Shown: positions 4,866 to 58,504 of the stretch, one piece after another
How the letters are laid out: each line of letters opens with the position of its first letter
How positions within the stretch are numbered: position 1 is the first letter of the stretch
Source: Glycocaulis sp.
GTDB taxonomy: Bacteria > Pseudomonadota > Alphaproteobacteria > Caulobacterales > Maricaulaceae
Reading direction: 5' to 3'
Assembly: GCF_051859565.1 (NCBI RefSeq)
Contig: NZ_JBHYFK010000004.1
Location: 271,099 to 335,098, forward strand
DNA length: 64,000 nucleotides
Translations under genes and position numbers: made by a program
The notes under the pieces: generated by a model
Database searches by the model: none
What the model was told of the DNA's origin: nothing
Seen by the model: only the letters and a program-made list of their open reading frames with translations

Positions 4866-5258
4866 ATGGGTGACGATATTGCCTTCGAGCTCTCACACGA
4901 GCGCAGGCTGATAATCGTTACCTACCCTGAGCACGCCGGTGCCAGCGCCATCCGCAAGCTGATATCGGTCGCAGGTGAAGGCGTCATGCCCAGCGGTTTC
5001 AACGCCCTGCTGGATTTCTCCGCCACACTCTCACTCGACTTTCCCGTCGAAGCGATGATCGAGCTGTCCATGGTACGGCGACGTCACCTGCCTTACCGGC
5101 CAAGTGAAGTCCGAAAGACCGCCTATCTGCGCGCGCGGCCCGCGCTACGCGATGTGCTCGATGCGTGGGAGAGCTTCTTCTACGAAGATCCGCCCGCCCT
5201 CATCTTCCGCCATTTCGATGATCGCGAGGCGGCGCTTGAGTGGCTGACCGAGCCCTAA
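4866..5258 (+). CDS. hypothetical protein (130 aa)
   Basis: Isolated ORF with protein-like composition. No motif recognised. Confidence 0.45.
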   Translation: MGDDIAFELSHERRLIIVTYPEHAGASAIRKLISVAGEGVMPSGFNALLDFSATLSLDFPVEAMIELSMVRRRHLPYRPSEVRKTAYLRARPALRDVLDAWESFFYEDPPALIFRHFDDREAALEWLTEP

Positions 5259-5355
5259 CCACCCTCGATGTCGGGAACCTGCGCGCAGAGTTAACCGTTT
5301 CTCTCATGTTGAGCTGCCCGGAGACCCCGTGGCGGATCAGAAGGGAGAGGCAACG

Positions 5356-5907
5356 ATGAAACGCATTCTTGTGACGACAGTCGTCATCGCGTCCTTCGCG
5401 GGCGCTGCCCACGCCCAGCTGCCTGATCTGACCGGTCAGGTAACCGGCACGGTCAACCAGACCACCGATGCCCGGCTGGGCCTGCTCGGCAGCGAAGCAA
5501 TGATCGACCAGCGTACAGGTCTGGGGATCGATACCCGCCTGACCGGCCAGCTGGACCGCGCCTTGCCACGCCATGACCGCATGGCAGCCAACGCGGCTTT
5601 GCGCACCCAGCTGGAAACCGAGTCGCACGCCTACGTGCGCGCCAGTGCGCCGCCCCCGCGCGCAAGAGCCAGCGCCCGTGTCGAATATGCTCCGGTTCGG
5701 GTCTATACCCGCGACGGCTATTATGTCGGCCACGTGCACCGCACGCGCCGGTCCTCGGGCCAGTACTATGTGGTGATCCGCCCGCAGGGTGCCTCGCGCA
5801 CACACGCGGTGCTGGCCAGCCACGCGGCCTTTGATGCCAGCGCCAATGCGGTCGTACTGGCAGCCACGCAGGCCGAGCTGAACTCACAGCTGAACATCCA
5901 CCGCTAG
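5356..5907 (+). CDS. hypothetical secreted protein
   Basis: ATG at 5356 follows gggagag. Signal peptide MKRILVTTVVIASFAGAAHA-Q. A hairpin with a T-run follows the gene. Confidence 0.55.
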   Translation: MKRILVTTVVIASFAGAAHAQLPDLTGQVTGTVNQTTDARLGLLGSEAMIDQRTGLGIDTRLTGQLDRALPRHDRMAANAALRTQLETESHAYVRASAPPPRARASARVEYAPVRVYTRDGYYVGHVHRTRRSSGQYYVVIRPQGASRTHAVLASHAAFDASANAVVLAATQAELNSQLNIHR

Positions 5908-35946: not shown

Positions 35947-36037
35947 GGAGAGGTGGCCGAGTGGTCGAAGGCGCTCCCCTGCTAAGGGAGTATACGCCAA
36001 AAGCGTATCGAGGGTTCGAATCCCTTCCTCTCCGCCA
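35947..36037 (+). tRNA. tRNA-Ser (anticodon GCU)
   Basis: GGAGAGGTGGCCGAGTGGTCGAAGGCGCTCCCCTGCTAAGGGAGTATACGCCAAAAGCGTATCGAGGGTTCGAATCCCTTCCTCTCCGCCA. It has a long variable arm, anticodon loop CTGCTAA and an encoded CCA. Confidence 0.92.
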
Positions 36038-36165
36038 GATTTCCGGACGCGCCGCACCTACAAATCGTTGATTATAATCATAATTTACAGAGATTAACTT
36101 TTCTGCTCGATCTCTGACGCCTCGATGTGCTACACATTTTGCTGCACATTTAGCGGGGCACAGCG

Positions 36166-37431
36166 ATGAATATCACCCGGCGTGGGAGCACGTTTTATCT
36201 CGTCCGGCGGGTGCCGAGACGCTATCAGCGGGTGGAAAAGCGCGCCACGATCTGGATCAGCCTGCACACCGATTCCGAAAGCGAGGCGCAGCGCAAGGCT
36301 CCGGCCGCCTGGAGCCTGATGGAAGCGGCATGGGAAGCGCGGCTCGCCGGGGATAGCGACGATGCCGAGCGCCGCTATGAGGCAGCCCGCGATCTCGCAG
36401 CCATGCGCGGCTTTCAGTATCTGCCAGCGCAGAAGGTGGCAGCCCTGCCCCGTGAGGAACGCCTGCAGCGTATGGAAGCAGTCCTGCGCGATGGCGAGCC
36501 GGACCGGGTTGAAGCATCGGCCCTGCTTGGCGGCGTTGAACAGCCTGCCATCACGGTCAGCCGGGCGCTGGAGATGTTCTGGACGCTCGCAAGGGACCGC
36601 ACCCTTGGAAAGAGCGAGGATCAGCTGCGCCGCTGGAAGAACCCGCGCATCAAGGCGGTCCGCAATTTTCTTCACGTGGTGGGCGACAAGGCGATCAGCG
36701 AGATCACGCCTGATGACGTGCTGGAATTCCGGCAATGGTGGATCGACCGGGTGGAGGCCGAAGGGCTGACCGCCAACAGCGCCAACAAGGATTTCACGCA
36801 TCTGGCTGATATGCTGAAAACCGTGAACCGGATGAAGCGGCTGGGTCTGGTGCTGCCCTTTACCGATGTCGCCCTGAAAGAGGGCGAGAAGCGCACGCGC
36901 CCGCCCTTCTCGGTGGACTGGATCAGAACGCGGCTAATGGCTCCCGGCGCGCTGGACGGGCTCAACACGCAGGCGCGTTGCCTCGTGCTGGGCATGATCA
37001 ACACCGGCTACCGGCCAAGCGAGGCCGCCGGGCTCTTACCTGAGCATATCCGGCTCGATACCGATATTCCCCATATCTCGATCGAGCCGGCCGGGCGTCA
37101 GCTGAAGAACGCCACCAGCAAGCGCGTCATTCCGCTGGCCGGGATTTCGCTGGAGGCATTCCGGGCCTGCCCTGACGGATTTCCGGCCTATCGCGGCAAG
37201 GACAAGATCAGCGCAACCGTGAACAAATATCTGCGCGAGAATGGCCTTCTGGAAACGCCCGCGCACAGTCTTTACGGCCTGCGTCACAGTTTCGAGGACC
37301 GGATGATCGCCGCGCACGTGGATGAGCGCGTGCGGCGTGACCTTTTCGGGCATGCCTATAACCGCGAACGCTATGGCAAGGGGGCTGATCTGAAGCATCT
37401 TCACGATGTCGTTTCCAGCGTCGCCCTATAG
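36166..37431 (+). CDS. tyrosine-type site-specific integrase
   Basis: 421 aa. The catalytic region ..GYRPSEAAGL.. ..HSLYGLRHSFEDRMIAA..DLFGHAYNRERYGKG fits the R..H-x-x-R..Y pattern, and it is adjacent to a tRNA. Confidence 0.92.
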   Translation: MNITRRGSTFYLVRRVPRRYQRVEKRATIWISLHTDSESEAQRKAPAAWSLMEAAWEARLAGDSDDAERRYEAARDLAAMRGFQYLPAQKVAALPREERLQRMEAVLRDGEPDRVEASALLGGVEQPAITVSRALEMFWTLARDRTLGKSEDQLRRWKNPRIKAVRNFLHVVGDKAISEITPDDVLEFRQWWIDRVEAEGLTANSANKDFTHLADMLKTVNRMKRLGLVLPFTDVALKEGEKRTRPPFSVDWIRTRLMAPGALDGLNTQARCLVLGMINTGYRPSEAAGLLPEHIRLDTDIPHISIEPAGRQLKNATSKRVIPLAGISLEAFRACPDGFPAYRGKDKISATVNKYLRENGLLETPAHSLYGLRHSFEDRMIAAHVDERVRRDLFGHAYNRERYGKGADLKHLHDVVSSVAL

Positions 37432-44006: not shown

Positions 44007-45038
44007 ATGAACATACAAATAATTTCAAGCATTTCCTTGGCCCTGGCTCTGTCTCTAACAGGCTGTGCGCAAAGGGCAGGCGATCTGGACGATCAGCGGC
44101 AGCGAGATGCGGACCTCGCATCGCCTAGCTCTACCGCAAGGGCGTCACTTTCATCTGATCTTGTTGGGTCATTTTCCCGCGGCCCCCATGAACTCCATTT
44201 CAGCGGATTGACGTGCGACGATCATCTGCCCTACGGCGCGCCAGGGGAAGTCTCCGCCCCCGAAGGGGACCGGGTAACGGTGTGCCAGTGGTCCGGTGAC
44301 GGCCAACAGGCCTTTTTCGTCTCGCGCTATGACCGCAGCCGCGTCTCGGCAGACTGGACCGCTTACACCCTGACACGGGACATGATGCTGGCGGTTGCCC
44401 GGAGCGAAATTGTCCGCCGGGAACATGGCGTGGATTTCCAGCCAGACCCGCAGATCGAGACCGAAGCCTTCCGCTCACCCGGGCATCGGAGCTTTACCGG
44501 GATCGGCAATCTCACGCCAGCCCATGACCGTGGTCATCTGGCTGCGGCCGAGCCGTTCAAATGGAGCCTTGAGGGTTATCAGCGCACTTTCATGGTTTCG
44601 AACATCGCAATCCAAGCAGGCTGGTTCAATCAGCAGCTCTGGCAGGATGTCGAGGCGCAGGTGCAGGGCTGGGCCTGCGATCTCGGGACCGTTCATGTCG
44701 TAACCGGGGTGGTGCATGGCCAGGAGCCGCAAACCTTCCCGCTCCGCCAGCGCAATGATGCGAGCCACATACCGGAATATTTCTACATGGCCGTATACAC
44801 ACCGCACGAAGGTGGTCATGCCGTCGGCATACACTTCCCCAATGCCGTTCCGCCAGCTGATGAACGCGATATCCGTCCGGAAGCGGGGGCGATCACCATC
44901 GTTGAACTTGAGGCGTTAACTGGTCTGAACTTCCACCCCCATATGGATCCAGAGCATCAGTTGGCCGTAGAAGCCCTCCCCGTAGCGGAGTCCATTTGGA
45001 GATTTGACTATCCGCGCAACTTCCAGTGCCGCGAATGA
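44007..45038 (+). CDS. DNA/RNA non-specific endonuclease (NucA/Serratia-type beta-beta-alpha-Me), lipoprotein
   Basis: Lipobox ..LALSLTGC. The catalytic motif ..TPAHDRGHLAAAE.. (DRGH) is followed by ..FMVSNIAIQAGWFNQQLWQDVE.. (Asn metal ligand context). ggggaggg precedes the ATG. Confidence 0.87.
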   Translation: MNIQIISSISLALALSLTGCAQRAGDLDDQRQRDADLASPSSTARASLSSDLVGSFSRGPHELHFSGLTCDDHLPYGAPGEVSAPEGDRVTVCQWSGDGQQAFFVSRYDRSRVSADWTAYTLTRDMMLAVARSEIVRREHGVDFQPDPQIETEAFRSPGHRSFTGIGNLTPAHDRGHLAAAEPFKWSLEGYQRTFMVSNIAIQAGWFNQQLWQDVEAQVQGWACDLGTVHVVTGVVHGQEPQTFPLRQRNDASHIPEYFYMAVYTPHEGGHAVGIHFPNAVPPADERDIRPEAGAITIVELEALTGLNFHPHMDPEHQLAVEALPVAESIWRFDYPRNFQCRE

Positions 45039-45755: not shown

Positions 45756-46661
45756 CTAGCCTGGCCACCGGACGTCCACCGCAATCGGACAATGATCCGA
45801 CGGGTGGCGCTCGCGGGGGCCAGAAAAAGTCGTTTCGAAGAACGAGCCATCGACCTTGAAACGGGCAGCCTCTTCGTTGAGCACCAGAAAATCGATGAAC
45901 TCGGCATAGCGCGGATTGCATCGAGGGCTGATCCCGGCGCCGGCAAGGCGCAGCGGTGCGGGGTCGCCGTCATTGAGATCGAGCCAGACGCTATCTCCTT
46001 CGACCTCCAGGCGCCTGTTGAAGTCACCGCCCACGATAACGCCACGGCCAGCGGCGCTGCGTTCATCAATCCAGCTTTCGAGAACCGGGACTTGATCGAA
46101 GAAGACCGGGCAGGCAGATGCGGCATCGCCGCTGAAGCAGCCTGATTTGAGGTGCACGCTCATCAGGTCGAGCGGCGCTTCTCCCGTCAGCGTGATGGCA
46201 ACACCCCAGCGTAGCCGGTCCTGACCTTCGACATCGAGTTCGGTAAGGGCTGGGAGGACAACATGGTCGATCCCGCGGCGCACTGCGATAGCGGTGGACT
46301 GCATGGTCAGGCGCGTGCCGTCGTCGCGGCCCCGGCACAGCGGGTAGTCATCCTGTTCGCCAGCCGGGCGGGCTTCGACGTGAAAAGTCCACTGGGAAGG
46401 ATCGAAGACACGCGCGAGTGCCGCCTCGTTCTCGATCTCCTGCAGGAGCCATATATCAGCGCCGACCTCATCGATAATGGCCGTCACGCGCTGATACCCG
46501 GCATCGTCGCGCGGCGCACACCCCATGCCGTTTTCAGCAGCAAGGTGCTCGATATTCCATGCCGCGATGCGTAGCCCGCCGGGTACAGGGGCCGGCGCAG
46601 ACGACCTCTCGCACGCGGTTACCAGAGCAAGCGCACCCAGCGCCGGAATCATCCATTTCAT
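45756..46661 (-). CDS. endonuclease/exonuclease/phosphatase (EEP) family lipoprotein
   Basis: MKWMIPALGALALVTAC lipobox. EEP motifs WNIEHL, LLQEI, GGDFN and PSDHCP. ggagg precedes the ATG. Confidence 0.87.
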   Translation of the reverse strand: MKWMIPALGALALVTACERSSAPAPVPGGLRIAAWNIEHLAAENGMGCAPRDDAGYQRVTAIIDEVGADIWLLQEIENEAALARVFDPSQWTFHVEARPAGEQDDYPLCRGRDDGTRLTMQSTAIAVRRGIDHVVLPALTELDVEGQDRLRWGVAITLTGEAPLDLMSVHLKSGCFSGDAASACPVFFDQVPVLESWIDERSAAGRGVIVGGDFNRRLEVEGDSVWLDLNDGDPAPLRLAGAGISPRCNPRYAEFIDFLVLNEEAARFKVDGSFFETTFSGPRERHPSDHCPIAVDVRWPG

Positions 46662-46977
46662 CGCGGGGACCTCCATTGATAGTGCAAGTATCGCGTGATC
46701 ACGTCAGGCCCGCTAGGCGCCATCAGCGATAATATGACGTTGCTATCCAGGTTACGGGGGCCTGTTCGCCGGATCTGTTCAATAGGCGTTCTAAACAGGG
46801 GGAGTATGGTCTTGGCCGCTCGCTCCCCCATGAGCGCTAATGTGTTGCCCGCGGACGATGGCGAACTCGGGTGCCGGATGGCGCAGCGCCCACTTACGTA
46901 TCGATCAGAGTGGTGATCGGTCCCAATATTCGCGGTTGCTGCGTGACTACTGCCCTCTGCCTGTTCGAGGACACTGG

Positions 46978-47542: not shown

Positions 47543-47962
47543 CTATTTTCCTTTTGCCGGCGCCTCACCCAGAGAGCCAGCCAGTTGCAACAGGTGGCGG
47601 CGGATTTTGCGGTCTTCGATACGATTGAAGGCTTGGGCGAGTTGCACCCCTTCCCGGCTTCCGACGAAGTTTGAGATTGCCGCTGCTTCATCCTCGTTGC
47701 GCTTCAGGGTATCTACCGCCTGGTCAACGTCCTCGTAAAAATAGCCAACGGGCACCTCCAAGGCACGAGCCAGCTCATAAAGCCGACCTGCGCCGATCCG
47801 GTTGACCCCGTTCTCGTATTTCTGAAGCTGCTGGAAGGTAATCCCAACCTTGGCCGCGAGCGCCTGCTGGGAGATCTGCATGACTCGGCGGCGCAGGCGG
47901 ATGCGGATCCCGACATGCCGGTCGATAAGGTTAGGCGTTCGTGGACTGTCTTTAGACGCCAT
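47543..47962 (-). CDS. XRE-family HTH transcriptional regulator (PraR/PhrR-like)
   Basis: ..IRIRLRRRVMQISQQALAAKVGITFQQLQKYENGVNRIGAGRLYELARALEVPVGYFY.. is a canonical HTH_3 domain. Confidence 0.88.
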   Translation of the reverse strand: MASKDSPRTPNLIDRHVGIRIRLRRRVMQISQQALAAKVGITFQQLQKYENGVNRIGAGRLYELARALEVPVGYFYEDVDQAVDTLKRNEDEAAAISNFVGSREGVQLAQAFNRIEDRKIRRHLLQLAGSLGEAPAKGK

Positions 47963-47980
47963 GGCTTTTGTATCCGGTTT

Positions 47981-48424
47981 CTAGACCCGCTCCCGGTCAC
48001 CGTTTTCGATGGCTGGATCACAGGCCGCCAGCTCACCGGTCTGCCGGTGCCTGACGATTATCTGATAGCGGTATGACTTCATGATCTCGCACGCATCTTC
48101 AAGTACGACACTTCTGCGTTCTGGATCACCGAAGCTTACCTCGAAATCATCCGATTGCGGAAATATGGCGATTCCAGGCCAGATTTTCCCGTCCAGCTCG
48201 AACTCGTGGAACTCCCACTCCTCAGCCGCCAGTGCGAAAATGAGCCGTGTCGGATAGGTGATCTGGAAGTCGCCGGAACTGGCTCCGACATAGACTTTAT
48301 GGGCGGTCTGTGCGGCGCCGCCGGCTACTTCCTGATAGGGATAGACCCTTACCAGGATGTGCAGGACGTTGGGGCCTTCATGACCAGCGCCGGTAAAGAT
48401 ATCGGTATCGTTCCTAGCCTTCAT
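47981..48424 (-). CDS. hypothetical soluble protein (147 aa)
   Basis: Its start lies inside the upstream stop region (aATGAAGGCTAG). Beta-rich composition. The C-terminal ..ACDPAIENG.. is reminiscent of small D-P-x-I-x-N proteins, but this is not assignable by eye. Confidence 0.55.
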   Translation of the reverse strand: MKARNDTDIFTGAGHEGPNVLHILVRVYPYQEVAGGAAQTAHKVYVGASSGDFQITYPTRLIFALAAEEWEFHEFELDGKIWPGIAIFPQSDDFEVSFGDPERRSVVLEDACEIMKSYRYQIIVRHRQTGELAACDPAIENGDRERV

Positions 48425-50420
48425 TGTCTGTCCCTTCGGTATTTAGGTTCGACGCGGTCTCTGGAGCCTCGGGACGCGCCCAGAAACTCAGATAGTCGGG
48501 GCGCGCATAGCCCGCTTCTTCAAGCTCTGAGCGGATCGTCATCGCCTGATCACGCTCGCCTGCGAGCCAGTAAACGCGCGATGCCAGATCATTCATGCGC
48601 AGGTCGCCAATCAGATCGACATCGCCGATCAGCGCCATGGCTTCACGCAATACACGCTGCGTCTCAGGCCTTCCCAGCGCGATGAAGGCATCATGGCGTA
48701 GAAGCTGAGCCCTCAGGGCAAGCAGGCGCGCATTGGCGCGGCCCGCTTCCAGCTCGGATGTCAGACCGGCAAGTGCATTGGCCGCGCTGACAGCCGCCTC
48801 ATCATAAGCACCGGCCGCAAGCGCGACCTGACCGGAGAGAATGTCGAAACTGGCATTCTCCAGCACACGGCCGTCATAGCTGCCTTGCGGATCACGGCTT
48901 GCCCGCAGCCGCCGCGCCCGGTCGATCAGCAGCTGGGCGCGGATCAGCGCCGTATCGAATAGCGCCAGTTCGGCCCGGTCACGCTGCACAACCAGTAGCA
49001 GGCGCAGATAGCGCGCATTCTCAGGATCGCGTGCGGTGAGATCTTCCAGAAGCGATGCGGCCTGCTCCAGCGCCGCCGCGGCGCTGGCGGTGTCACCGGT
49101 GTCCACCCTTAGCGCGGCTTCGCCATGCACGGCGCTGGCCAGCCTGAATGCGGTGAGAAGATTGGCCGGTTCCTCGGCCAGCTGTCTGGCAAAAATTTCC
49201 CCCTCATCCCGGCGCGCATCGGCAGCTTCTGCCAGCTGGCCAGCGGCCCTGTAGGCGTCCGCTGTCCAGCCCAGCGCATTTGCCAGCTCGCCTGCATACT
49301 CACCGAACTCACCTTGCAGCGCCTCATAGCCAGCTCTCGCTACGCGAAGATCGTCGAGCGCCAGACCGGCCTCGCCACTCTCCAAGGCCATGACCGCCGC
49401 GTTCAGATGGGCGCTGGCTGCGCGCTGGCGTGCATCACGATTGTCCGGGGTGAGCGCCAGGAGCGCATCGGCATATTCCCGGCTTGTATCGAGCATTGCA
49501 CGCGCTCTTGCCATATCGCCGGCGCGATAGGCAGACACACCGGCTGATGATGTCAGTTCGGCAAAAGCCAGCAGGCTGCCAGCATCTGCCCGCAGGCCGG
49601 GCCCGCCCTCGCCTAGCGCCAGTGCCATTGAAAAGGCCTGCGCAGCACCTGACCGATCACCGGCAAGATCACGCGCCTCGGCAAGCCAGGTCAGCAGCCG
49701 CATTCGTCTGGCCACGTCATCGGGCGTTGGCGCAGGCGGCATGCCGCGTTCAAGGACGGCCTCTCCGGCTGCAATCATCACGCTCTGGCGGGCACTCGCC
49801 TGCAAGGGGGAAGCGATCTCGATCAGCTGGCTGTCCGCAAAGCGGATGGCTTCGGCCTCGGCAGCACGGCTGAGTTGCAGCTCGTTGCCCAGGTGGACGT
49901 TGAAAATTCCAAGCGCCAGGCAGATCGCCACGGCAGCCGTCAGTGCGATAAAAGAGCTGCGCAGATAAAGCCCGCGCCGTGTCCGGGGCACATTTGTGCC
50001 AGCCAAATCCAGAATCTTTTTGCCCACCGCATTGATATCGGCCGGCTCCCGGTCAGGGTAGATGGACCCCGCAAGAAATGGCGGCGGCAGAGACACGAGA
50101 AGCCCGTCCGGTCCGCGGTCGCAGGCGAGAACTGGCGGCAAGGCCGGCTCTTCGCTGCTGCCGCCAAGCTCTACGCGTACCAGGCGTTCGCGCGGCGCGC
50201 TCCGGAGAAATCCGGCAACAGCGCGGCTGACCGCAAGGTCTTCGACAGTCGCTTCCGAATAGCATACGACGAGCCAGCCGGGCACAGGATCGGTCTCCGC
50301 TTTCCAGCCAACGACGACCGGACTGCCCTGGCGCATCAGCCAGGCTGCAAGCCCCCACACGCGGGCACGGTCGCCGTCCGAACAGATCAGCGCGATGACA
50401 GCGGCGTTATTCATGGCCAC
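48414..50420 (-). CDS. single-pass membrane protein: TIR-like/flavodoxin-fold N-domain, TM, about 490-aa TPR-like helical-repeat domain
   Basis: The N-terminal AVIALICSDGDRARVWGLAAWLMRQGSPVVVGW..WLVVCYSE has a beta-alpha-beta pattern like TIR_2-type domains. RTRRG is followed by a TM (SSFIALTAAVAICLALGIFNV, residues about 156-175). An Ala/Leu/Arg-rich repeat region follows. Confidence 0.65.
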   Translation of the reverse strand: MAMNNAAVIALICSDGDRARVWGLAAWLMRQGSPVVVGWKAETDPVPGWLVVCYSEATVEDLAVSRAVAGFLRSAPRERLVRVELGGSSEEPALPPVLACDRGPDGLLVSLPPPFLAGSIYPDREPADINAVGKKILDLAGTNVPRTRRGLYLRSSFIALTAAVAICLALGIFNVHLGNELQLSRAAEAEAIRFADSQLIEIASPLQASARQSVMIAAGEAVLERGMPPAPTPDDVARRMRLLTWLAEARDLAGDRSGAAQAFSMALALGEGGPGLRADAGSLLAFAELTSSAGVSAYRAGDMARARAMLDTSREYADALLALTPDNRDARQRAASAHLNAAVMALESGEAGLALDDLRVARAGYEALQGEFGEYAGELANALGWTADAYRAAGQLAEAADARRDEGEIFARQLAEEPANLLTAFRLASAVHGEAALRVDTGDTASAAAALEQAASLLEDLTARDPENARYLRLLLVVQRDRAELALFDTALIRAQLLIDRARRLRASRDPQGSYDGRVLENASFDILSGQVALAAGAYDEAAVSAANALAGLTSELEAGRANARLLALRAQLLRHDAFIALGRPETQRVLREAMALIGDVDLIGDLRMNDLASRVYWLAGERDQAMTIRSELEEAGYARPDYLSFWARPEAPETASNLNTEGTDNEG

Positions 50421-51093
50421 CCCCTCCGTTGAGAGGGGCTGGTTGCAAGACCGGTTCAGCAGTTACAGCTTTCAACCCGCCTGTGAGCAATTCCCCGGCC
50501 AGATCCGTCAGATGAGAGGCCAGGGCCGATCGTTGCCCGGCTGAAAGCGGCGCTGCAGCGTACAGCAACTCAGCATAAGCAATATCGAGCTCACGAATGG
50601 AGCCAGGGTCAACCGGCACAAATGAGGTGATCGGCACACTCAAAATGCGCGCAATCTCCACCGCTTCAGGAAAGCTCGGATCGGCGCCATCATAAATCTG
50701 CATGAGGCGGGCAAGTCCCAGAAACTCAATCAGCTCCTGCTCCGCAGCGAGACCGCGATGGGATGCAATAAGCTGAATGCTCGCCCCGAAACTGGGTAAC
50801 GAGAATTTTCTGGTCGCCTCGTCGCCCCCTCCGGCCAAATCCCCAACCCGGTCAGCTGCCCCTAGAGAATCAATCATTTGTAGTAATTCACTTTTTACGC
50901 AACCCCCTACTGCCGCAATGCTACTTATACGTATAATTTCTGCGCTTACAACTACCGCGTAAATCGCATTACGGCGTCGATTGCAAACTCCTGCCAACAC
51001 CACTGCTCGGGGCTCACGGATAGCAGCCAAAGTGGCGCACTCGATGACAACCATTGAGGTCGGCCAGCGATAATTGCGTGATAACATCAGCAC
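50407..51093 (-). CDS. HTH (XRE-like) domain protein; true start probably Met73 (50877)
   Basis: ..IQLIASHRGLAAEQELIEFLGLARLMQIYDGADPSFPEAVEIARILSVPITSFV.. fits the HTH_3 pattern. The first 72 codons lie in the AT-rich cassette and look non-coding. The stop overlaps the next gene's start. Confidence 0.55.
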   Translation of the reverse strand: MLMLSRNYRWPTSMVVIECATLAAIREPRAVVLAGVCNRRRNAIYAVVVSAEIIRISSIAAVGGCVKSELLQMIDSLGAADRVGDLAGGGDEATRKFSLPSFGASIQLIASHRGLAAEQELIEFLGLARLMQIYDGADPSFPEAVEIARILSVPITSFVPVDPGSIRELDIAYAELLYAAAPLSAGQRSALASHLTDLAGELLTGGLKAVTAEPVLQPAPLNGGGGHE

Positions 51094-51143
51094 TCCGACA
51101 GTGGATGACCATTAAATCACTGCGCGCCTTACAGTATTTTATA

Positions 51144-51665
51144 TCAATTTACTAAAAGGACCGAAAATATAACCGCCACTAAATTTGACCCGAAGTGCAT
51201 AATGCTTAAACAAAAAATACTTTCTAAAAAATTATATTGAACCCGGTAATGCAAATAACACAAGGCGTACAAACCAAATGCCATGGCCGCTGATGTTGAG
51301 TGCACGAACCCATCGTGCATCAGGAACGCCACACACGGAACAACTATAATCGCAGCAAAAATGCGAAGGGCCTTATTAAATCTAAAAATTTCAATAATTA
51401 GTATTATAGCAGCCGACTCAACAATTGGGGCAAAAACCAATACAACAAATAGGCCGCCGCCGCCCCAAAGAAACGCCGAAAAATTAAATTGTATCAAAAA
51501 CTGTATTGCTGGTGCGAACAAAAACAACGATATAGCTGTTGTTAAAAGCTTTATTGCCGCGCCCAGAGAAATTATCTTCACCACAAAAAGTAGAAAACTT
51601 TTTTCTCTACGCAGAATAGAAGATGCCACTAACGTGGCATCTTCTGAACGGTCAAACCTAAGCAC
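51144..51665 (-). CDS. CPBP (CAAX/Abi)-like intramembrane protease family protein; candidate immunity protein
   Basis: Polytopic and AT-rich. The motifs are APIVES..EIFR (degenerate EExxxR), FLMH (FxxH; the classical second motif is FxxxH) and MHFGSNL (HxxxN). It lies immediately downstream of the double-glycine (GG) leader peptide gene. Confidence 0.5.
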   Translation of the reverse strand: MLRFDRSEDATLVASSILRREKSFLLFVVKIISLGAAIKLLTTAISLFLFAPAIQFLIQFNFSAFLWGGGGLFVVLVFAPIVESAAIILIIEIFRFNKALRIFAAIIVVPCVAFLMHDGFVHSTSAAMAFGLYALCYLHYRVQYNFLESIFCLSIMHFGSNLVAVIFSVLLVN

Positions 51666-51858
51666 TTCGAAGAGCCCTATCCTCAGACACGGACAGCTGT
51701 GGCCCTGCGTCCACTTGCCTGTTCATCCAATCGATAATTTCTCCGAGTTTCGAAGTGAAAGGAAGGTTCGCTTCATTACCAAAATCTTGCCAATTTTCGA
51801 ACCATGGGAATGCTCCACCGGAAACCAGAGCGACTTCATCAGCTTGAAGGGTTTTCAT
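51658..51858 (-). CDS. double-glycine-leader peptide precursor (bacteriocin/microcin- or pheromone-type), 66 aa
   Basis: The leader MKTLQADEVALVSGG has M(-15), L(-12), E(-8), V(-7), V(-4) and GG(-2,-1), matching the LSxxELxxIxGG consensus. ggaga lies about 8 nt before the ATG. A C39-ABC exporter and HlyD are encoded nearby. Confidence 0.7.
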   Translation of the reverse strand: MKTLQADEVALVSGGAFPWFENWQDFGNEANLPFTSKLGEIIDWMNRQVDAGPQLSVSEDRALRSA

Positions 51859-52020
51859 TACCTACTTCTCCAAAAATTGCTACTTGTTTGATCGCATTTG
51901 CAACCTCATGCACCCTACACACAACCGAAACGAGAGCAACTTTTTCAATTTTTGTTTCTTGTTTTAGTTGTGGAGAGATGTCTTTCTATCTTTTAGTGCA
52001 GCATGTTAAATGGAGCTTCG

Positions 52021-53250
52021 TCACGCACGCACCGCCATCACTGGATCGATAAACCATCGCCATAACGGGCGCCGGTCCACGATCACGTCGGCCATCACGG
52101 TCATACCGGCTTGCAAAGGGCGCTCGTCGCCATAGGCCGCCAATGCCTGTTGCCCAAGCTCCACCCGGAGCCGATATACCGGCTGGCTTACCGGAATAGG
52201 GCCGGCAACTTCGATTGGTGACAAGGCCGATGTCGAAATCTCGATCACATGCCCGCTCAGCGTACCAAAGCGCTGATAGTTGAAGGCATCGACGCGCAAG
52301 CGCACGTCCTGGCCGTTGGCGATGAAGCCCGCAGCACTCGTCGGCACCAGAAGATAGCCCTGGAGGACCTGGCCTTCGGGGAGTATGGCGGCTAGGGGTT
52401 GGTCCGGGCGCACCGTAGCACCCAGTTGGGCCTGTATGGCTGTGATCTGCCCGCTCACCGGAGCGCTGAGCACATAGCCGGCGGCGCGGTCCAACTCCTG
52501 GCGAGCCTGTGAGAGGGCAGCCGCTTCACTACGCAGCCGCGACAGAGCGATATCATGGTCCAAAGGAAGTTGTTCGAGGGCATGCTGGACTTCGCGCCGT
52601 TCGCTGCGCCGCTGGATGGTCAGCGCGTCGATATCCTCTTTCGATGTAAGCGCCGCCAAATAGCCCTGCCTGCGTTGATCGACATCAGCGCGCGGAGCAA
52701 AGCCGCGATCAGCGAGATCTCGCCAGCGGGCAAGCTGCGCCTCGGCGACTTCAACACTCTCGCTTGCAAGGGCGGCGCGGACCGTAAGACGGTCCAGTTC
52801 CGAGGCGAGTGAAATCAGACGCGCTTGCAGCCTTTCTTGCTGCTGGCTGAATTGTTGTGTCTGGGCTTCACGCTGCAACCGCAGTTCGCTGATCCGGCTT
52901 TCAATCTCAGCGCGCTGAGACGACGCTGAGCCACCCTCGGCCCCGAAAAGCTCGGTGCTCAGCCGGATGACCGGATCACCCGCCGAAACCGTTTGGCCTT
53001 CCTCGACGAATAGCTCTGCCACCACACCGCCGCCAACAGGGGTGATCGTAGCAATACCGCCCTCGGGCGCCAGATAGCCAACAACCGTTTCCTTGCGGGA
53101 GAACTCTGCAAAAATCACAAAGATTGCCACGCCGAACGTGATGGCGCTAAAGGCTAGCGTCATCACAGCCAGTATCCGTGGCTGCACAATCACCGCCTCG
53201 CCCATGCCTGTGTCGGATCTGGCTTCAAGAACTTCCCGCCGAAAAAGCAT
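52021..53250 (-). CDS. HlyD/CvaA-family membrane fusion (secretion) protein
   Basis: MLFRREVLEARSDTGMGEAVIVQP.. is followed by a TM, a lipoyl-like hairpin (GGVVAELFVEEGQTVSAGDPVIRL) and a long coiled coil. Confidence 0.9.
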   Translation of the reverse strand: MLFRREVLEARSDTGMGEAVIVQPRILAVMTLAFSAITFGVAIFVIFAEFSRKETVVGYLAPEGGIATITPVGGGVVAELFVEEGQTVSAGDPVIRLSTELFGAEGGSASSQRAEIESRISELRLQREAQTQQFSQQQERLQARLISLASELDRLTVRAALASESVEVAEAQLARWRDLADRGFAPRADVDQRRQGYLAALTSKEDIDALTIQRRSERREVQHALEQLPLDHDIALSRLRSEAAALSQARQELDRAAGYVLSAPVSGQITAIQAQLGATVRPDQPLAAILPEGQVLQGYLLVPTSAAGFIANGQDVRLRVDAFNYQRFGTLSGHVIEISTSALSPIEVAGPIPVSQPVYRLRVELGQQALAAYGDERPLQAGMTVMADVIVDRRPLWRWFIDPVMAVRA

Positions 53251-53333: not shown

Positions 53334-55445
53334 ATGATTGAAGAACTGTTCCATCGCGGACGGATACCAACGATTCTCCAGTCGGAAGCCTCTGAATGCG
53401 GGCTGGCCTGCCTGGCCATGGTGGCATCCCGGCATGGGCGCAGGACTAATCTTGCAGAACTGCGGGCAAAACTATCGCTGTCGTTAAAGGGCATGACGCT
53501 GCAGGGGCTCATGCAGGCAGCAGACGGTATGGGGTTCTCCTGCAGGGCCGTGCGGTGCGAGCTGGAGGAACTCGGTCAGCTCCGTCTGCCAGCGATCCTT
53601 CACTGGGATATGAACCATTTTGTGGTGCTGGCCTCGGTAAAGCGCGGACAGGCGGTTATCCATGACCCGGCACGGGGCCAGCGCGAGCTCTCTCTTGCTG
53701 AAGTGTCAAAGAGCTTTACCGGCGTTGCCCTGGAGCTGACCCCAACGCCGTTTTTCGAAACCAAGCGTACCGTTGCCACGCTCAAGCTGGGCGATTTCTG
53801 GTCACGCATCCGCGGGCTTTCGGGCAGTCTCTGGCAGCTCTTTTTCCTGTCACTCTTGCTTCAGCTCTTCGTGATCGTGGGGCCGCTGGTCAATCAGATC
53901 GTCGTCGATGAAGCGATTACCAAAGCCGATCTTGATCTTCTCAATACCGTGATCATCGGCTTCCTGATCCTAACACTCCTGCAGGTAGCCATAACGGCCA
54001 TACGCGGCTTTGTTGCCATGTATCTGGGCAATCTTATGACCTTCCAGATGCAGGCCAATCTGCTGCGGCATCTCATGCGCCTGCCGGCTGACTTTTTCGA
54101 AAAGCGCCATGTGGGCGCCATCGTTACACGCTTCCGCTCCATCGAGCCGATCCAGAACCTGATCACATCGGGAGTCATCGGGGCGGCGCTCGACGGGTTG
54201 ATGGCCATTGGCACGCTCATCTTCATGTTCTTCTATGCGCCAACGCTCACCCTAGTCGTGCTGGGTTTTCTCGCGCTGTACTTCATCGCGCGCTTTGCAA
54301 GCTTTCCCTATGTGCGACGTATGACTGAGGAACAGATCCAGACCTCGGCAGACGTTCAGTCGCATTTTCTGGAAACAATCCGCTCGATCCGCCCGGTCAA
54401 ACTCTTCGGCCGGGAAGAGCAACGCCATAATCGATGGCAGAACCTGTTTGCCACCAACCTGAACATCGGCATCCGGCTGGAACGGTTTGGAATCTGGTCC
54501 GGCTCCGGTCATGCGTTGTTATCAGGTGCGCAGACACTTATCGTTCTTTATCTCGGAGCACGCGCGGTCATCGCCGGAGACATGACACTCGGCATGCTGT
54601 TCGCATTCCAGTCCTACAGATCGTCGTTTACTGGCGCTGCGATCGGACTGGTGAACACGCTCTTTTCATGGCGGCTTGTCGGCCTCCATCTTGAACGCCT
54701 GGCCGACATTGCGCAGACCGAACCCGAAGAGCCGCAGGAAAAGCTTCCCTCCCTGCCCCAGAAGCTTCAAGGAGCAATCAGCGTACAAAATCTGCGTTTC
54801 CGGTATGGCGACCATGAGCCGTGGGTTATCGACGGTATCAACCTTGATATTGCGCCAGGTGAGAAGGTCGCCATCGTGGGCCGGTCGGGTGGGGGCAAGT
54901 CCACTCTGATGAAACTGCTTCTTGGTCTATATACCGCGCAAGAGGGCAGCATCGGCTACGATGGCCGCAATCTTGTTCATCTGGGACGGCGTGCGGTGCG
55001 CGCACAAATTGGTGTGGTGATGCAGGATGACCGCCTGCTCTCGGGTACGTTAGCGGAGAACATTTCCTTTTTCGACACAGCATTGGATATGCGCCATGTA
55101 GAGTGGTGCGCAAAGGCTGCAGCCATTCACGATGAGATCACCGCCATGCCCATGGGCTATCTCAGCCTTGTAGGCGATATGGGCTCGGCGCTGTCAGGCG
55201 GGCAGATACAGCGTATCCTCCTAGCCCGCGCGCTCTATAACAGGCCTTCGATCCTCATGCTGGATGAAGGCACGGCCAATCTCGACAAGCAGAGCGAGGA
55301 ACGGATTACACAGGCCCTTGCGCGAATCCCCGTCACGCAAATCATCATTGCCCATCGGCCACAGGCGATAGCGTATGTCGATCGGGTAATGGAGATGTCT
55401 GATGGACAACTTCGAGCGTCGGGCTCAGAGCAAACGGCCCAATAA
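53334..55445 (+). CDS. peptidase C39 domain-containing ABC transporter (bacteriocin/microcin exporter, CvaB/ComA-like)
   Basis: N-terminal ..IPTILQSEASECGLACLAMVASRHG.. is the C39 catalytic Cys context. Six TM segments. Walker A GRSGGGKST, signature LSGGQIQR and Walker B ILMLDEGT. Confidence 0.95.
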   Translation: MIEELFHRGRIPTILQSEASECGLACLAMVASRHGRRTNLAELRAKLSLSLKGMTLQGLMQAADGMGFSCRAVRCELEELGQLRLPAILHWDMNHFVVLASVKRGQAVIHDPARGQRELSLAEVSKSFTGVALELTPTPFFETKRTVATLKLGDFWSRIRGLSGSLWQLFFLSLLLQLFVIVGPLVNQIVVDEAITKADLDLLNTVIIGFLILTLLQVAITAIRGFVAMYLGNLMTFQMQANLLRHLMRLPADFFEKRHVGAIVTRFRSIEPIQNLITSGVIGAALDGLMAIGTLIFMFFYAPTLTLVVLGFLALYFIARFASFPYVRRMTEEQIQTSADVQSHFLETIRSIRPVKLFGREEQRHNRWQNLFATNLNIGIRLERFGIWSGSGHALLSGAQTLIVLYLGARAVIAGDMTLGMLFAFQSYRSSFTGAAIGLVNTLFSWRLVGLHLERLADIAQTEPEEPQEKLPSLPQKLQGAISVQNLRFRYGDHEPWVIDGINLDIAPGEKVAIVGRSGGGKSTLMKLLLGLYTAQEGSIGYDGRNLVHLGRRAVRAQIGVVMQDDRLLSGTLAENISFFDTALDMRHVEWCAKAAAIHDEITAMPMGYLSLVGDMGSALSGGQIQRILLARALYNRPSILMLDEGTANLDKQSEERITQALARIPVTQIIIAHRPQAIAYVDRVMEMSDGQLRASGSEQTAQ

Positions 55446-55526: not shown

Positions 55527-55709
55527 TTATACAAAGTTGCCAAGAGGTTGCACCCAATCGCGCTGTGGCATCTGCTCTAGTTGTAGTCTATACGCCAAGT
55601 CTCCAGCTTTTCGCAGGCGCCGGTAAGGCTCATGAACCAATTTGCGGGCACGCGGATTAAGTTCGCTGCCACGAACCGTACTCCGATTCAGCGATCTCCT
55701 CATTGTCAC
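55527..55709 (-). pseudogene. 60-codon ORF in the position of the RES-domain toxin; too short to be intact
   Basis: ATGA overlap with the upstream DUF2384 antitoxin gene, but only 263 nt separate that gene from the converging ABC gene. RES domains need about 150 aa or more. Confidence 0.35.
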
Positions 55710-56116
55710 CGACCTCCGCTCTCAGCATCCAGGTATTCGCGTATGCGGACGACAGAGGCGATATCGCCCTGCTTCATTATCTCGACAGGTGTGAAGCCAC
55801 CCAAAACCTGATTTGGCTTTTTGACCCAAGCATATCCGCGCCAGGGATCCGTAAAGAGGTGGCGAAGCCGTTTTTGGATGCCCAAGAGCAAAGAGAGCCG
55901 CATAGCTAGTCCATAATCGATATGTTCAAGCTTGCCCTGTTTCCAGCGCGCGAAGGTGCTTGATGACAGACCGCCGAGTATTGCACAGGCCTCATCGTCG
56001 GTAAGCGTCCATTTTTCAAACAACCGGACGGCAGTGCGTGCCAATGCAGCCGCTTCGGCTTCGGTTATGAGAGGCTCATCGGGTGCCGCCTTGGTGCGTG
56101 AGCTGTCTTCGCCCAT
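55706..56116 (-). CDS. MbcA/ParS/Xre-type antitoxin (DUF2384)
   Basis: ..ACAILGGLSSSTFARWKQGKLEHIDYGLAMRLSLLLGIQKRLRHLFTDPWRGYAWVKKPNQVLGGFTPVEIM..VVRIREYLDA is the typical DUF2384 pattern. Confidence 0.8.
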   Translation of the reverse strand: MGEDSSRTKAAPDEPLITEAEAAALARTAVRLFEKWTLTDDEACAILGGLSSSTFARWKQGKLEHIDYGLAMRLSLLLGIQKRLRHLFTDPWRGYAWVKKPNQVLGGFTPVEIMKQGDIASVVRIREYLDAESGGR

Positions 56117-56269: not shown

Positions 56270-58504
56270 CTAGCCGGAATAATAGCTGCGGTAATTCTTG
56301 TAGTAGTAGGACGAGCCTTCGTAGCCATAACGGGCCTGCGCATCCATATCGACCTGCGCGAGTGTGACCCCCAGGACATTAGCTCTCACATCGCCCAGAA
56401 TATCGAGCGCGCTCCTGGCAGCTTCACGCGGGGTGGTCTTCCATTTGACGTTCATGATGACCGCATCGGCGCGCGCGGCGATGACGCGGGTATCGGTCAC
56501 GGCCAGAACAGGCGCTGTATCGATTAGCACCAGATCATAACGCTTCCGCAGACTGGCGAGGAGCGATCTGAAGGCATCGGAGCTGAAAACATCGCGCGGT
56601 GTGTACTGCGACTCCACGACGGGGAGAATATGCAGACCACGCTCGGCGTCCTCGGTCAGGACGTCCTCCAGCGAACACTCCCCGGCAAGCACCTCCAGCA
56701 GGCCTCTGGATGCGCCTGGCACGGCCGCCTTGGTCAGCAGGCGCCGGCGCAAATCACAATCGAGGATGATCGTAGTGGAGCCTGCCATGGCCGATATCCG
56801 GCCCAGCGAATAGGTCGTGGTCGTTTTGCCCTCGCCGGGCAGAGCCGAGGTGATGGCCACCACTTTATGGACCTCATCGATATTGGACAGGAGTATGGCC
56901 GAGCGGATGACACGGAACGCTTCAGCGATCCCTGACAACGGGTTCTCGCGAATATAGTCGAAAGGCTGGCTGCCGGCCGGCAATTTGCCTTGTCCGAAGC
57001 GCCCGCGTGCGAGCATCGGGACAGAGGCGATATGCCCGGTGCCCAGTTCGCGTTCGACATCGGCTTCAGTACGCACGCCGTTATCAAAGGTCTCGAGCAG
57101 GAAGACGGCCCCTACCCCCATCATGCCGCCCAGGACCAGGCCAAGGGCCAGATTGAGCAGCCAGTTGGGCGAACTGGCTTCCAGGGGTATGGCGGCGCGC
57201 GCGACGATGCGGGCATCGGCCGTTGCCAGCTCGTCCTGCTCGCTGGTCTGACGGAAGCGGTTGAGGAAGGACTCAAAGAGTGTGCGTGAGGCCTGGGCCT
57301 CACGCTCCAGTTCACGCAGGCGCACCAGAGCCCGGTTATTGGTAATCAGCTCGGTCCTGAACCCGGAGAGCGTGTTCTGCAAGGACGCCACGCGCTGGCG
57401 CGCGACATTCACCTCGGTTTCCAGCCCTGCGATAATGCGCTGTATCTCCCGGTCAATCTGCTCTTCCAGATCAGCCACTTCACGTTCGACGGCCAGGAAT
57501 TCGGGGTGGCGCGGGCCATAGCGCGAGGAAAGATCGCTCCGGCGCCGGCTGGTCTCGGTCTGCTGGGCGCGCAAGGCCCGGATCGTTTGCGAGCGCAGCA
57601 CCTCCCCGATCGTATCAAGCGATGCGCCGCGCTGGAGCTGGGTCTGGACACTGCGCAGGGAGGATTCCGCTGCCGACAGCTCGGCGCGCTGAATGGCCAG
57701 CTGGGCATTGAGATCCGCGATCTGCTGCTCGGTCAGATTACTCCCGCCCGCATCGAGAAGGCCCTGTTCGGCGCGATACATTTCCACGGCCTGCTCGGCG
57801 GTACGGACCTCTTCGCGCAGGACTTCCAGGCGCTGATTGAGCCAGGTATTGGCCCGCTCGGTCGCATCGAACCTGGCTTCAAGCTGGGAGAGCAGATAGA
57901 GGTCAGCAAAGGCATTGGCGATGCGCGCTGCCTTCGCCGGATCTTCAGAGGCAAAACTGATACCAATGACGTAAGTCAGCCCCGACCGGCGCGCCGTCAG
58001 CCGGCCAATGACCGTATCGGTTACCCGTTCAAGAGCCGGGTCTTCATCACTGCCATCGCCGGCGGGGACGATCTGAGAGGGCAAAAGTGCCGTGACAAAG
58101 CCTCGCACACCCGCGATCACACCGCCCAGGCCAGAGGGCTCACGAAGCGCGCTATTGAACTCAGGATCGGAGACAAGATCGAGGGAACGCACAACACTCT
58201 GGGTCAGGGACCGGCTCTGAATGAGCTGAACCTCGGTATCGATGGCCGCCGCGTCCGATCCCACCCCGCTCAGGACCGCTTCCATATCGATAATCTGTGA
58301 ACGGCGCTGATCGATGATGACGCTCGCGGTGGCGGTATATTGCGGCGTCATCTGCATGGTGACGATGATGACCAGCGCAAAGACGGCAAAGGCCACTGCG
58401 ATGAGCACCGGCAATCGCCGGCGGAAAATGCGGGCCAGATGACGCAGATCGATCAGATCGTCACTGCCTGCCGCTTTACCCCTGCCAGGATCTGCCTGCA
58501 CCAT
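56270..58504 (-). CDS. polysaccharide biosynthesis tyrosine autokinase (Wzc/ExoP-like)
   Basis: GumC/Wzz N-domain with two TM segments and a coiled coil. C-terminal kinase with Walker A SALPGEGKTTTT. Tyr-cluster tail YGYEGSSYYYKNYRSYYSG. Confidence 0.92.
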   Translation of the reverse strand: MVQADPGRGKAAGSDDLIDLRHLARIFRRRLPVLIAVAFAVFALVIIVTMQMTPQYTATASVIIDQRRSQIIDMEAVLSGVGSDAAAIDTEVQLIQSRSLTQSVVRSLDLVSDPEFNSALREPSGLGGVIAGVRGFVTALLPSQIVPAGDGSDEDPALERVTDTVIGRLTARRSGLTYVIGISFASEDPAKAARIANAFADLYLLSQLEARFDATERANTWLNQRLEVLREEVRTAEQAVEMYRAEQGLLDAGGSNLTEQQIADLNAQLAIQRAELSAAESSLRSVQTQLQRGASLDTIGEVLRSQTIRALRAQQTETSRRRSDLSSRYGPRHPEFLAVEREVADLEEQIDREIQRIIAGLETEVNVARQRVASLQNTLSGFRTELITNNRALVRLRELEREAQASRTLFESFLNRFRQTSEQDELATADARIVARAAIPLEASSPNWLLNLALGLVLGGMMGVGAVFLLETFDNGVRTEADVERELGTGHIASVPMLARGRFGQGKLPAGSQPFDYIRENPLSGIAEAFRVIRSAILLSNIDEVHKVVAITSALPGEGKTTTTYSLGRISAMAGSTTIILDCDLRRRLLTKAAVPGASRGLLEVLAGECSLEDVLTEDAERGLHILPVVESQYTPRDVFSSDAFRSLLASLRKRYDLVLIDTAPVLAVTDTRVIAARADAVIMNVKWKTTPREAARSALDILGDVRANVLGVTLAQVDMDAQARYGYEGSSYYYKNYRSYYSG

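Follow-up and report, generated by a model that had tools for sequence, protein, structure and literature searches.

A double-glycine peptide gene and a putative immunity gene form a swapped cassette beside a peptidase-containing exporter of Glycocaulis

In a 64,000-nucleotide stretch of Glycocaulis sp. (contig NZ_JBHYFK010000004.1; the whole stretch is called the window), a small gene at positions 51658-51858 encodes a peptide with a double-glycine (GG) leader, next to genes for a HlyD-family adaptor and an ABC transporter of the peptidase-containing type (PCAT). The gene is real and is under purifying selection in the peptide frame, not in the antisense frame. Very probably the peptide is the exported cargo of the neighbouring transporter. 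Judging from the sequence, we lean towards a bacteriocin of the class II microcin-like kind that is left unmodified and is paired with a cognate immunity protein in the membrane. Most likely it adds a new sequence type to a well-known kind of system and is not a new kind of system. The leader, the adaptor, the PCAT with its active site, the swap of the cassette among relatives and the co-variation of peptide and membrane protein are demonstrated below. The elements of the peptide gene are as follows.

51658-51858, minus strand: precursor peptide gene, from the list of open reading frames (ORFs) and its translation; ATG start, 66 codons, TAG stop
51814-51858, minus strand: double-glycine leader MKTLQADEVALVSGG, 15 residues, fitting the LSxxELxxIxGG-type consensus
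51661-51813, minus strand: predicted mature core, 51 residues, AFPWFENW...ALRSA, from composition and AlphaFold2
51865-51871, minus strand: Shine-Dalgarno-like GGAGAAG, read directly off the sequence

The precursor consists of the leader MKTLQADEVALVSGG followed by the core AFPWFENWQDFGNEANLPFTSKLGEIIDWMNRQVDAGPQLSVSEDRALRSA, with the sole GG at residues 14-15. Our translation of the 66-residue ORF is identical to the one given in a first-pass annotation of this DNA, whose counts for the core (51 residues, 8 acidic, 4 basic, 3 Trp, 4 Phe and no Cys) are correct on recomputation. The GGAG of the Shine-Dalgarno sequence ends 9 nt 5' of the ATG, and as this ATG is the first possible start past the upstream stop, the length of the leader is fixed at 15 residues. 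The leader carries the double-glycine consensus positions L-12, E-8, V-7, V-4, G-2 and G-1, and it also matches the published regular expression [KEQI]x[IL]x9G[GAS] (PMC12219008). Across the six frames of the 64-kb window the strict leader pattern is found once, in the peptide ORF, and it is found in none of 40 composition-preserving block shuffles.

The core is acidic and hydrophilic, with 8 D/E against 4 K/R residues, a net charge of -4.2 at pH 7, a pI of 4.3, a grand average of hydropathy (GRAVY) of -0.55 and an average mass of 5855.4 Da. It contains 3 Trp, 4 Phe, 3 Gly (6%) and neither Cys nor Tyr. Hydrophobic residues make up 47% of it by one published definition, computed here, compared with an average of about 61% cited in a review (PMC10233263), which perhaps rests on another definition. 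No transmembrane (TM) segment is found in the core (top 19-residue Kyte-Doolittle score -0.12) and the GxxxG motif is absent from it. An AlphaFold2 model of the precursor, of low confidence (predicted local distance difference test, pLDDT, 59), places helices at residues 18-30, 34-51 and 57-65.

Marine metagenomes, those of Tara Oceans among them, contain at least 11 contigs with an intact ORF for a 98%-identical allele of the peptide (V57E). Of its 201 nucleotides, 5 are different between the two alleles, four of them at third codon positions (four synonymous changes and one non-synonymous). The ratio of non-synonymous to synonymous rates (dN/dS, calculated by Nei-Gojobori for the window allele against the metagenome allele) comes to about 0.07 in the peptide gene, 0.17 in the membrane gene downstream and 0.16 in the hlyD 3' end; the excess of synonymous changes and the ratio of about 0.07 indicate purifying selection on the peptide frame. 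Identity between the alleles is highest in the peptide gene (97.5%), followed by the downstream gene (93%), the upstream spacer (90%) and the hlyD 3' end (83.5%). A 202-residue antisense ORF that overlaps this region has a dN/dS of 0.37 and its start codon is gone in the other allele, and an Rfam scan of the region returned no family. The outcomes that the first-pass annotation named as refuting its reading, namely an unconserved frame or a conserved element that is on the other strand or is a regulatory RNA, are thus countered by the conserved frame, the antisense ratio and the Rfam result.

The export genes lie immediately upstream of the peptide gene.

52021-53250, minus strand: HlyD-family membrane fusion protein, 409 residues; Pfam HlyD_3 and HlyD_D23, TIGR01843 at 2e-47
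53334-55445, plus strand: PCAT, 703 residues; Pfam Peptidase_C39 (5e-38), ABC_membrane and ABC_tran

The peptide gene begins 162 nt downstream of hlyD on the same strand, and hlyD is divergent from the PCAT gene. The N-terminal domain of the PCAT aligns to the peptidase domains of LahT150 (6MPZ, E 3e-24) and PCAT1 (4RY2) and keeps the catalytic residues, with the cysteine C22 in 'SECGLAC' and the histidine in 'NHFVV...IHDP'. The presence of a C39 domain with both catalytic motifs therefore identifies it as a true processing exporter and not as one with a HlyB-type C39-like domain. The NHLP exporter models remain below their cut-off on this exporter. Profile searches of the neighbouring genes revealed neither a modifying enzyme nor a histidine kinase beside the locus, and no response regulator or Rgg/PlcR-type receptor adjoins it.

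The peptide gene is located in a cassette that is exchanged between relatives.

50962-52038, no strand: variable low-GC cassette of spacer, peptide gene and membrane gene, about 1.1 kb, with conserved flanks on either side

GC content is 38-48% in the spacer and in the genes for the peptide and the membrane protein, compared with 62% for the window. The exporter is conserved in relatives, with identities of 96% in Glycocaulis albus, 92% in Alkalicaulis satelles and 72% in a Maricaulis metagenome-assembled genome (MAG). Nucleotide homology to G. albus, which covers the exporter genes, ends at position 52039 of the window and takes up again at 50961; the 1.08 kb in between is replaced. In its place G. 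albus carries, at the same site, a GG-leader peptide of 89 residues (P0008; leader MRKLSSAEMEIVCGG, net charge of the core -9) with an unrelated 18-bp hairpin directly past the peptide stop, together with a pair of membrane proteins of 35 and 135/140 residues, remnants of the insertion sequence (IS) IS3 and a HigBA pair. The peptides of the window and of G. albus share PW..F..G....PF(T/S)..G(E/A)IIDW(M/L), residues from which, given the low-confidence AlphaFold2 model, the aromatic core of a helical hairpin is probably built; the similarity is weak, with a pairwise E of 0.018 including the leader and a shuffle p of 0.012 for the core only. A third cassette type occupies the same locus in the Maricaulis MAG (L013 2970-4216), where an IS transposase precedes a GG-leader peptide with an 81-residue core of net charge -15, rich in Pro, Asp and Gly and containing 2 Cys, and an ORF of 304 residues follows.

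On Tara contig L001 the window-type module stands behind only the last 95 codons of hlyD, with inverted IS3 sequence on both sides. Upstream of it (L001 1054-1763) there is a second module with its own remnant of the hlyD 3' end, in which a GG-leader peptide (leader MRELSLKELCLVTGG, core beginning DKDAAAGNDPWW) is followed by a membrane protein of 97 residues. The 96-residue core of this peptide is acidic and rich in Trp at its N-terminus and includes a long hydrophobic stretch, rich in Gly and Ala, with 20 Gly, and from its sequence the module has the make-up of a canonical microcin-like toxin/immunity pair. In tandem with such a module, the window-type module thus holds the corresponding place in a row of displaced cassettes. 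Repeats frame both modules, direct ones at 1-300 and 2255-2554 and the inverted IS3 arms at 1922-2370 and 4948-5396. Between strains the cassette is 91-93% identical, compared with 83% for the flanking chromosome, and this closer relationship is consistent with recent lateral exchange.

The gene that follows the peptide gene encodes a small membrane protein, and two hairpins lie around the junction.

51144-51665, minus strand: small polytopic membrane protein, putative immunity protein; longest ORF 173 residues
51618-51645, minus strand: hairpin with a perfect 12-bp stem and a 4-nt loop, beginning 13 nt past the peptide stop codon
51590-51610, minus strand: second, A/U-rich 8-bp hairpin followed by TTTTT, from RNA folding; terminator- or attenuator-like in its presumed function

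The likely true start of the membrane protein is a GTG at 51584 or 51581, past the hairpins, which would give a protein of about 146 residues. It has about five hydrophobic helices, and its AlphaFold2 model is mediocre (pLDDT 69). Between the alleles of this gene, 26 of the 37 differences are at third positions. The protein is homologous to P0007 of G. albus (pairwise E 2e-5; shuffle p < 0.0005), and in these two proteins, only 25% identical, E83, H117, H157 and N161 are invariant. The pattern reads P-x-x-E, then 34 residues to H and 40 residues to HxxxN; the P-x-x-E and the spacing from E to H are equal to those in the PF02517 alignment, and the second Glu and the Arg of CPBP motif 1 (EExxxR) are absent. 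'CPBP family intramembrane metalloprotease', the UniRef name of the G. albus homologue, is a database name and not a test. Apart from the allele and the G. albus protein, searches with the membrane protein returned no homologue, and a local hidden Markov model (HMM) run over 80 related loci (4,285 ORFs) added nothing further. In size, position and topology the gene is like a microcin immunity gene and it co-varies with the peptide; an immunity role is putative. On Tara contig L005, of low coverage, the putative immunity ORF (region 987-1521) is split by a 13-nt insertion into pieces of 64 and 112 residues, either through misassembly or because this copy is decaying.

The RNA fold of 51590-51665, comprising both hairpins, has an energy of -27.8 kcal/mol (z = -5.0). 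The 82-nt stretch from 51607 to 51688, which includes the stop codon and the first hairpin, is free of substitutions between alleles that differ by 7% elsewhere. The hairpin of the G. albus cassette is at the same place relative to its peptide gene.

Outside this small family no relative of the peptide could be found. Pfam, NCBIfam, PADLOC, PDB sequence searches and Foldseek against PDB all gave nothing with the peptide, and the defence models of PADLOC matched none of the cassette genes. A word-indexed search of 5.8 billion proteins returned only the 98%-identical allele, and the exact peptide of the window is absent from a collection of 15 billion proteins. A full HMMER pass over 1.84 billion representatives returned the allele and four extra long repeat proteins, which are spurious because their scores sum many weak stretches. 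A scan of genome collections by peptide patterns gave nothing, and that of metagenomes gave the same allele again. The best plasmid match by tblastn (E = 1), within an 802-residue ORF of Paraburkholderia directly downstream of a VgrG-like ORF that is probably associated with type VI secretion, was rejected as chance. A likeness to 'AAESVIEWW / SEVDW' in Alteromonadales peptides was also set aside: a core-only HMM gave nothing against 19,062 small ORFs of related loci, and homology is thus not demonstrable. By eye the Gly-rich peptide on L001 resembles the window core in its acidic, Trp-rich N-terminus, but the similarity is not significant (p 0.15-0.6). The earlier statement that the core resembles no class that can be named therefore stands, as it belongs to no described family and its sole relative is the weakly similar P0008 of G. 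albus.

The first-pass annotation had also called the composition of the core atypical, and this is true in part. Most microcins are neutral or anionic, and they can do without positive charge since their entry is by way of receptors (2022 review, PMC10233263). We compared the core with 55 candidate GG peptides of other Proteobacteria, taken from a set of 80 loci with homologous exporters. Net charge is -2 or lower in 23 of the 55, 38 are free of Cys and 15 have a GRAVY below -0.3. An anionic, Cys-free core is thus common beside such exporters, and what is truly unusual is the low Gly content and the hydrophilic core without a membrane-spanning segment.

For cleavage, export, killing, immunity and hairpin function at this locus we infer the following course. 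The PCAT, the HlyD-type adaptor and an outer-membrane channel encoded elsewhere would recognise the 15-residue leader, and the PCAT would cut after Gly15 and export the 51-residue, anionic and largely helical core in one step, by type I secretion. The mature peptide would then most likely act as a narrow-spectrum class II microcin-like bacteriocin on related Maricaulaceae, and the downstream polytopic membrane protein, with its E...H...HxxxN pattern like that of CPBP/Abi proteins, would protect the producer. The genes of the peptide and the membrane protein would constitute a low-GC module of about 1.1 kb that is swapped in one piece at the hlyD 3' end, with IS3 adjoining in relatives, and the hairpins past the peptide stop would probably uncouple high expression of the peptide from low expression of the immunity gene. 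Since the core lacks a membrane-inserting segment, a receptor-mediated periplasmic or cytoplasmic target seems likelier than pore formation. The genetic context, as far as it can be read from the sequence, favours an antimicrobial over a signalling role.

Several observations weigh against such a bacteriocin. With neither a hydrophobic nor a Gly-rich segment, the core would be unable to act in the manner of microcins that form pores, and its target would have to be receptor-mediated or enzymatic. No sigma-70-like promoter is seen in the 162-nt spacer upstream of the peptide gene. All Tara contigs that reach far enough upstream (L001, L005, L008 and L010) join the cassette only to a truncated hlyD, residues 315-409, and export is doubtful on these contigs because only this remnant is present. 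The peptide family comprises just two sequence types, each from Glycocaulis, and therefore offers little comparative power. The membrane protein matches neither Pfam (PF02517) nor NCBIfam models even at E <= 10; hhalign against six genuine PF02517 proteins of related loci gives a probability of 0.6% (E 0.1); a PDB sequence search has no match; and Foldseek of its mediocre model (pLDDT 69) against PDB finds nothing below E = 2. As the profile tests failed and the fold search gave no match, though the residue pattern mirrors PF02517, we use the term CPBP-like for the protein and leave it outside the family.

A rather unlikely alternative is that the peptide is exported for something other than killing, either as a signal (a pheromone of a given pherotype) or as an extracellular structural or biofilm factor, with the membrane protein acting as a CPBP-type maturation protease or a sensor partner. 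The core, hydrophilic, anionic, probably folded and devoid of a membrane-active segment, would suit such a role, and non-killing GG-leader peptides are documented among the biofilm proteins of cyanobacteria (PMC4997328), as are microcins that promote biofilm in A. baumannii (PMC13188072) and a CAAX protease, SilX, that processes a signal peptide (PMC9298176). Co-variation of peptide and membrane partner is likewise seen in pherotype systems. However, the locus adjoins none of the sensor kinases, response regulators or Rgg/PlcR-type receptors looked for, 51 residues are long for a pheromone, the module stands in tandem with a canonical Gly-rich bacteriocin-like module on L001, and the low-GC, IS-associated, strain-variable cassette is of the kind seen for toxin/immunity pairs. 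We give still less weight to the proposal that the two Glycocaulis types, those of the window and of G. albus, represent a new class of PCAT cargo. These would be hydrophilic, acidic, Trp-rich mini-proteins in the form of a helical hairpin with a PW...PF...G-x-IIDW core that do not act on membranes; a degenerate CPBP-like protease would mature or inactivate them, and the pair would serve strain-specific signalling or a new mechanism of immunity in marine stalked bacteria.

It is very improbable that the peptide is a contact-dependent bacteriocin retained on the cell surface like Cdz of Caulobacter crescentus. That system comes from a related stalked alphaproteobacterial host with the same set of genes, for a PCAT, a HlyD protein, a small peptide and a small immunity protein of the membrane (PMC5380434), but it requires two aggregation-prone glycine-zipper proteins, whereas here a single peptide has 3 Gly, no GxxxG and a GRAVY of -0.55, and the searches of protein libraries detected no sequence similarity outside Glycocaulis. 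We consider it just as improbable that the locus is a decaying remnant, that is an orphan cassette carried by IS elements, or a chance ORF over a real element that is on the other strand or is an RNA. The truncated hlyD upstream of the cassette on the longer Tara contigs, the 13-nt insertion that splits the membrane ORF on L005 and the overlapping 202-residue antisense ORF point in this direction. In the window, however, the hlyD and PCAT genes to which the cassette is joined are intact; the peptide gene is the best-conserved segment of the cassette, with a dN/dS of 0.07 against 0.37 for the antisense frame, whose start is lost in the other allele, and Rfam has no match. The best-supported explanation is an unmodified microcin-like bacteriocin with its immunity protein.

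To our knowledge, almost all verified class II microcin-like bacteriocins are from Enterobacteriaceae. If active, the peptide would be a marine alphaproteobacterial, hydrophilic and anionic addition to them and would point to a receptor-dependent action that does not form pores. The locus displays IS3-assisted swapping of peptide/immunity modules at the hlyD 3' end, which is useful for mining cargo genes that homology search misses; as it stands, it is the expected type of orphan gene in the expected context.

Other features of the surroundings are recorded here in their own right. A tRNA gene at 35947-36034 (plus strand) is followed at once by a tyrosine integrase at 36166-37431 (DUF6538 and Phage_integrase), and this junction (35947-37431) probably marks where an integrated genomic island borders. 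The cargo of the putative island would comprise two nuclease genes, an Endonuclease_NS gene (44007-45038), an EEP gene (45756-46676), an XRE regulator, an Xre/ParS-type antitoxin (55706-56116) and the PCAT locus; exopolysaccharide (EPS) genes begin at 56270. By the cassette, a block of three genes on the minus strand (47543-50420), which is also present in G. albus and on L001, encodes an XRE helix-turn-helix protein of 139 residues and two orphans of 147 and 668 residues. In the larger orphan the N-terminus looks by eye like TIR and the body consists of Ala/Leu-rich repeats. Pfam, NCBIfam and PADLOC match neither of the two orphans, and the block may be an undescribed defence or regulatory module. 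In Microvirga and relatives (L019, L030, L033, L035, L040, L060 and L062), GG peptides with long leaders are encoded about 150-650 nt downstream of the PCAT gene; the leader ends in ...ELSEKELAxVAGG and is followed by RRIIVY(Q/S...), with a predicted core of 6-9 residues conserved across species, perhaps a very short exported peptide used as a signal. In Pseudoalteromonas (L018 8670-9631 and L022 8695-10523), tandem arrays of four to eight near-identical peptides of 35-36 residues with Gly-Ala leaders and cores such as GSFSVKYTKGDESLEITYQW adjoin a short Cys peptide, GREYDDPCDP..FF.

Among known systems, the class II microcins (MccV, MccL and MccN) are closest in their gene set, as the locus has a Gram-negative host, a precursor below about 150 residues and genes for a PCAT and a membrane fusion protein. 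They share with it a precursor of less than 10 kDa, a GG leader of 15-18 residues, an adjacent small membrane gene, an often anionic charge and low conservation, and they are processed and exported by a PCAT, a membrane fusion protein and TolC, of which the locus has genes for the first two. Class II microcins are abundant and extremely diverse in sequence, with many clusters that await validation, and the verified immunity genes are adjacent, encode at most 216 residues and have TM helices (PMC12219008). The verified members are hydrophobic and Gly-rich and often have Cys pairs or a Ser/Gly-rich C-terminus. In contrast, the core of the window has no sequence similarity to them, is hydrophilic with 6% Gly and no Cys, and ends in ...RALRSA; its host is a marine alphaproteobacterium of the Maricaulaceae and its antibacterial activity is putative. 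A modified peptide with a GG leader, that is a ribosomally synthesised and post-translationally modified peptide (RiPP) such as the lanthipeptides, the NHLP/Nif11 group and others, for which modifying enzymes and a core rich in Cys, Ser and Thr would be expected, was rejected, with no modifying enzymes among the neighbours and no Cys in the core.

The order of an anionic GG peptide followed by a CPBP or CPBP-like membrane protein is not confined to the window. In five other proteobacterial PCAT loci, from Alteromonadales and other gammaproteobacteria (L065 1755-2675, L078 5031-5951, L077 5110-5922, L058 and L068), an anionic GG peptide is followed in the same gene order by a genuine Rce1-like/CPBP protein (PF02517), which suggests a recurrent peptide-CPBP pairing in Gram-negatives. 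We know of no experimental study of such a pairing, and no search aimed at one was made. In Gram-positive class II bacteriocin loci, Abi/CPBP proteins such as PlnI, SkkI and those of the Blp locus were reportedly described as immunity proteins by Kjos et al. in 2010. Like the window, these loci have a GG-leader peptide gene and then a small polytopic membrane protein with the Glu / His / HxxxN set; unlike the CPBP immunity proteins, the window protein fails the Rce1-like Pfam model and the CPBP profile, and has about 146-173 residues and about four core helices. CAAX/Abi proteins are stated to confer bacteriocin immunity in a study in which SilX, a CAAX protease beside a bacteriocin locus of Streptococcus anginosus, serves signal-peptide processing and not immunity (PMC9298176).

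Signalling peptides with GG leaders (ComC/CSP, BlpC and SilCR) have the same leader type, the same kind of exporter and allelic variation between strains, but their cores of about 17-30 residues are encoded beside two-component sensor genes, whereas the core here has 51 residues and no such gene adjoins. The CdzAB-CdzC/D-CdzI system of Caulobacter crescentus (PMC5380434) is also an alphaproteobacterial type I secretion system made of a PCAT and HlyD; its cargo is small and of the GG type, and its immunity protein is a small one of the membrane. Unlike Cdz, the cargo of the window is single, has no glycine zipper and is not aggregation-prone by composition. In the mode of exchange, the closest likeness is to the orphan toxin/immunity arrays of contact-dependent inhibition (CDI) and Rhs systems (PMC3482391), in which, as on L001, modules made of a 3' fragment of the upstream gene, a toxin and an immunity gene are stacked and swapped by recombination. 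In contrast to the CDI/Rhs arrays, the conserved 'handle' here is the 3' end of hlyD, the gene of the export adaptor and not of the toxin, and copies of IS3 are involved.

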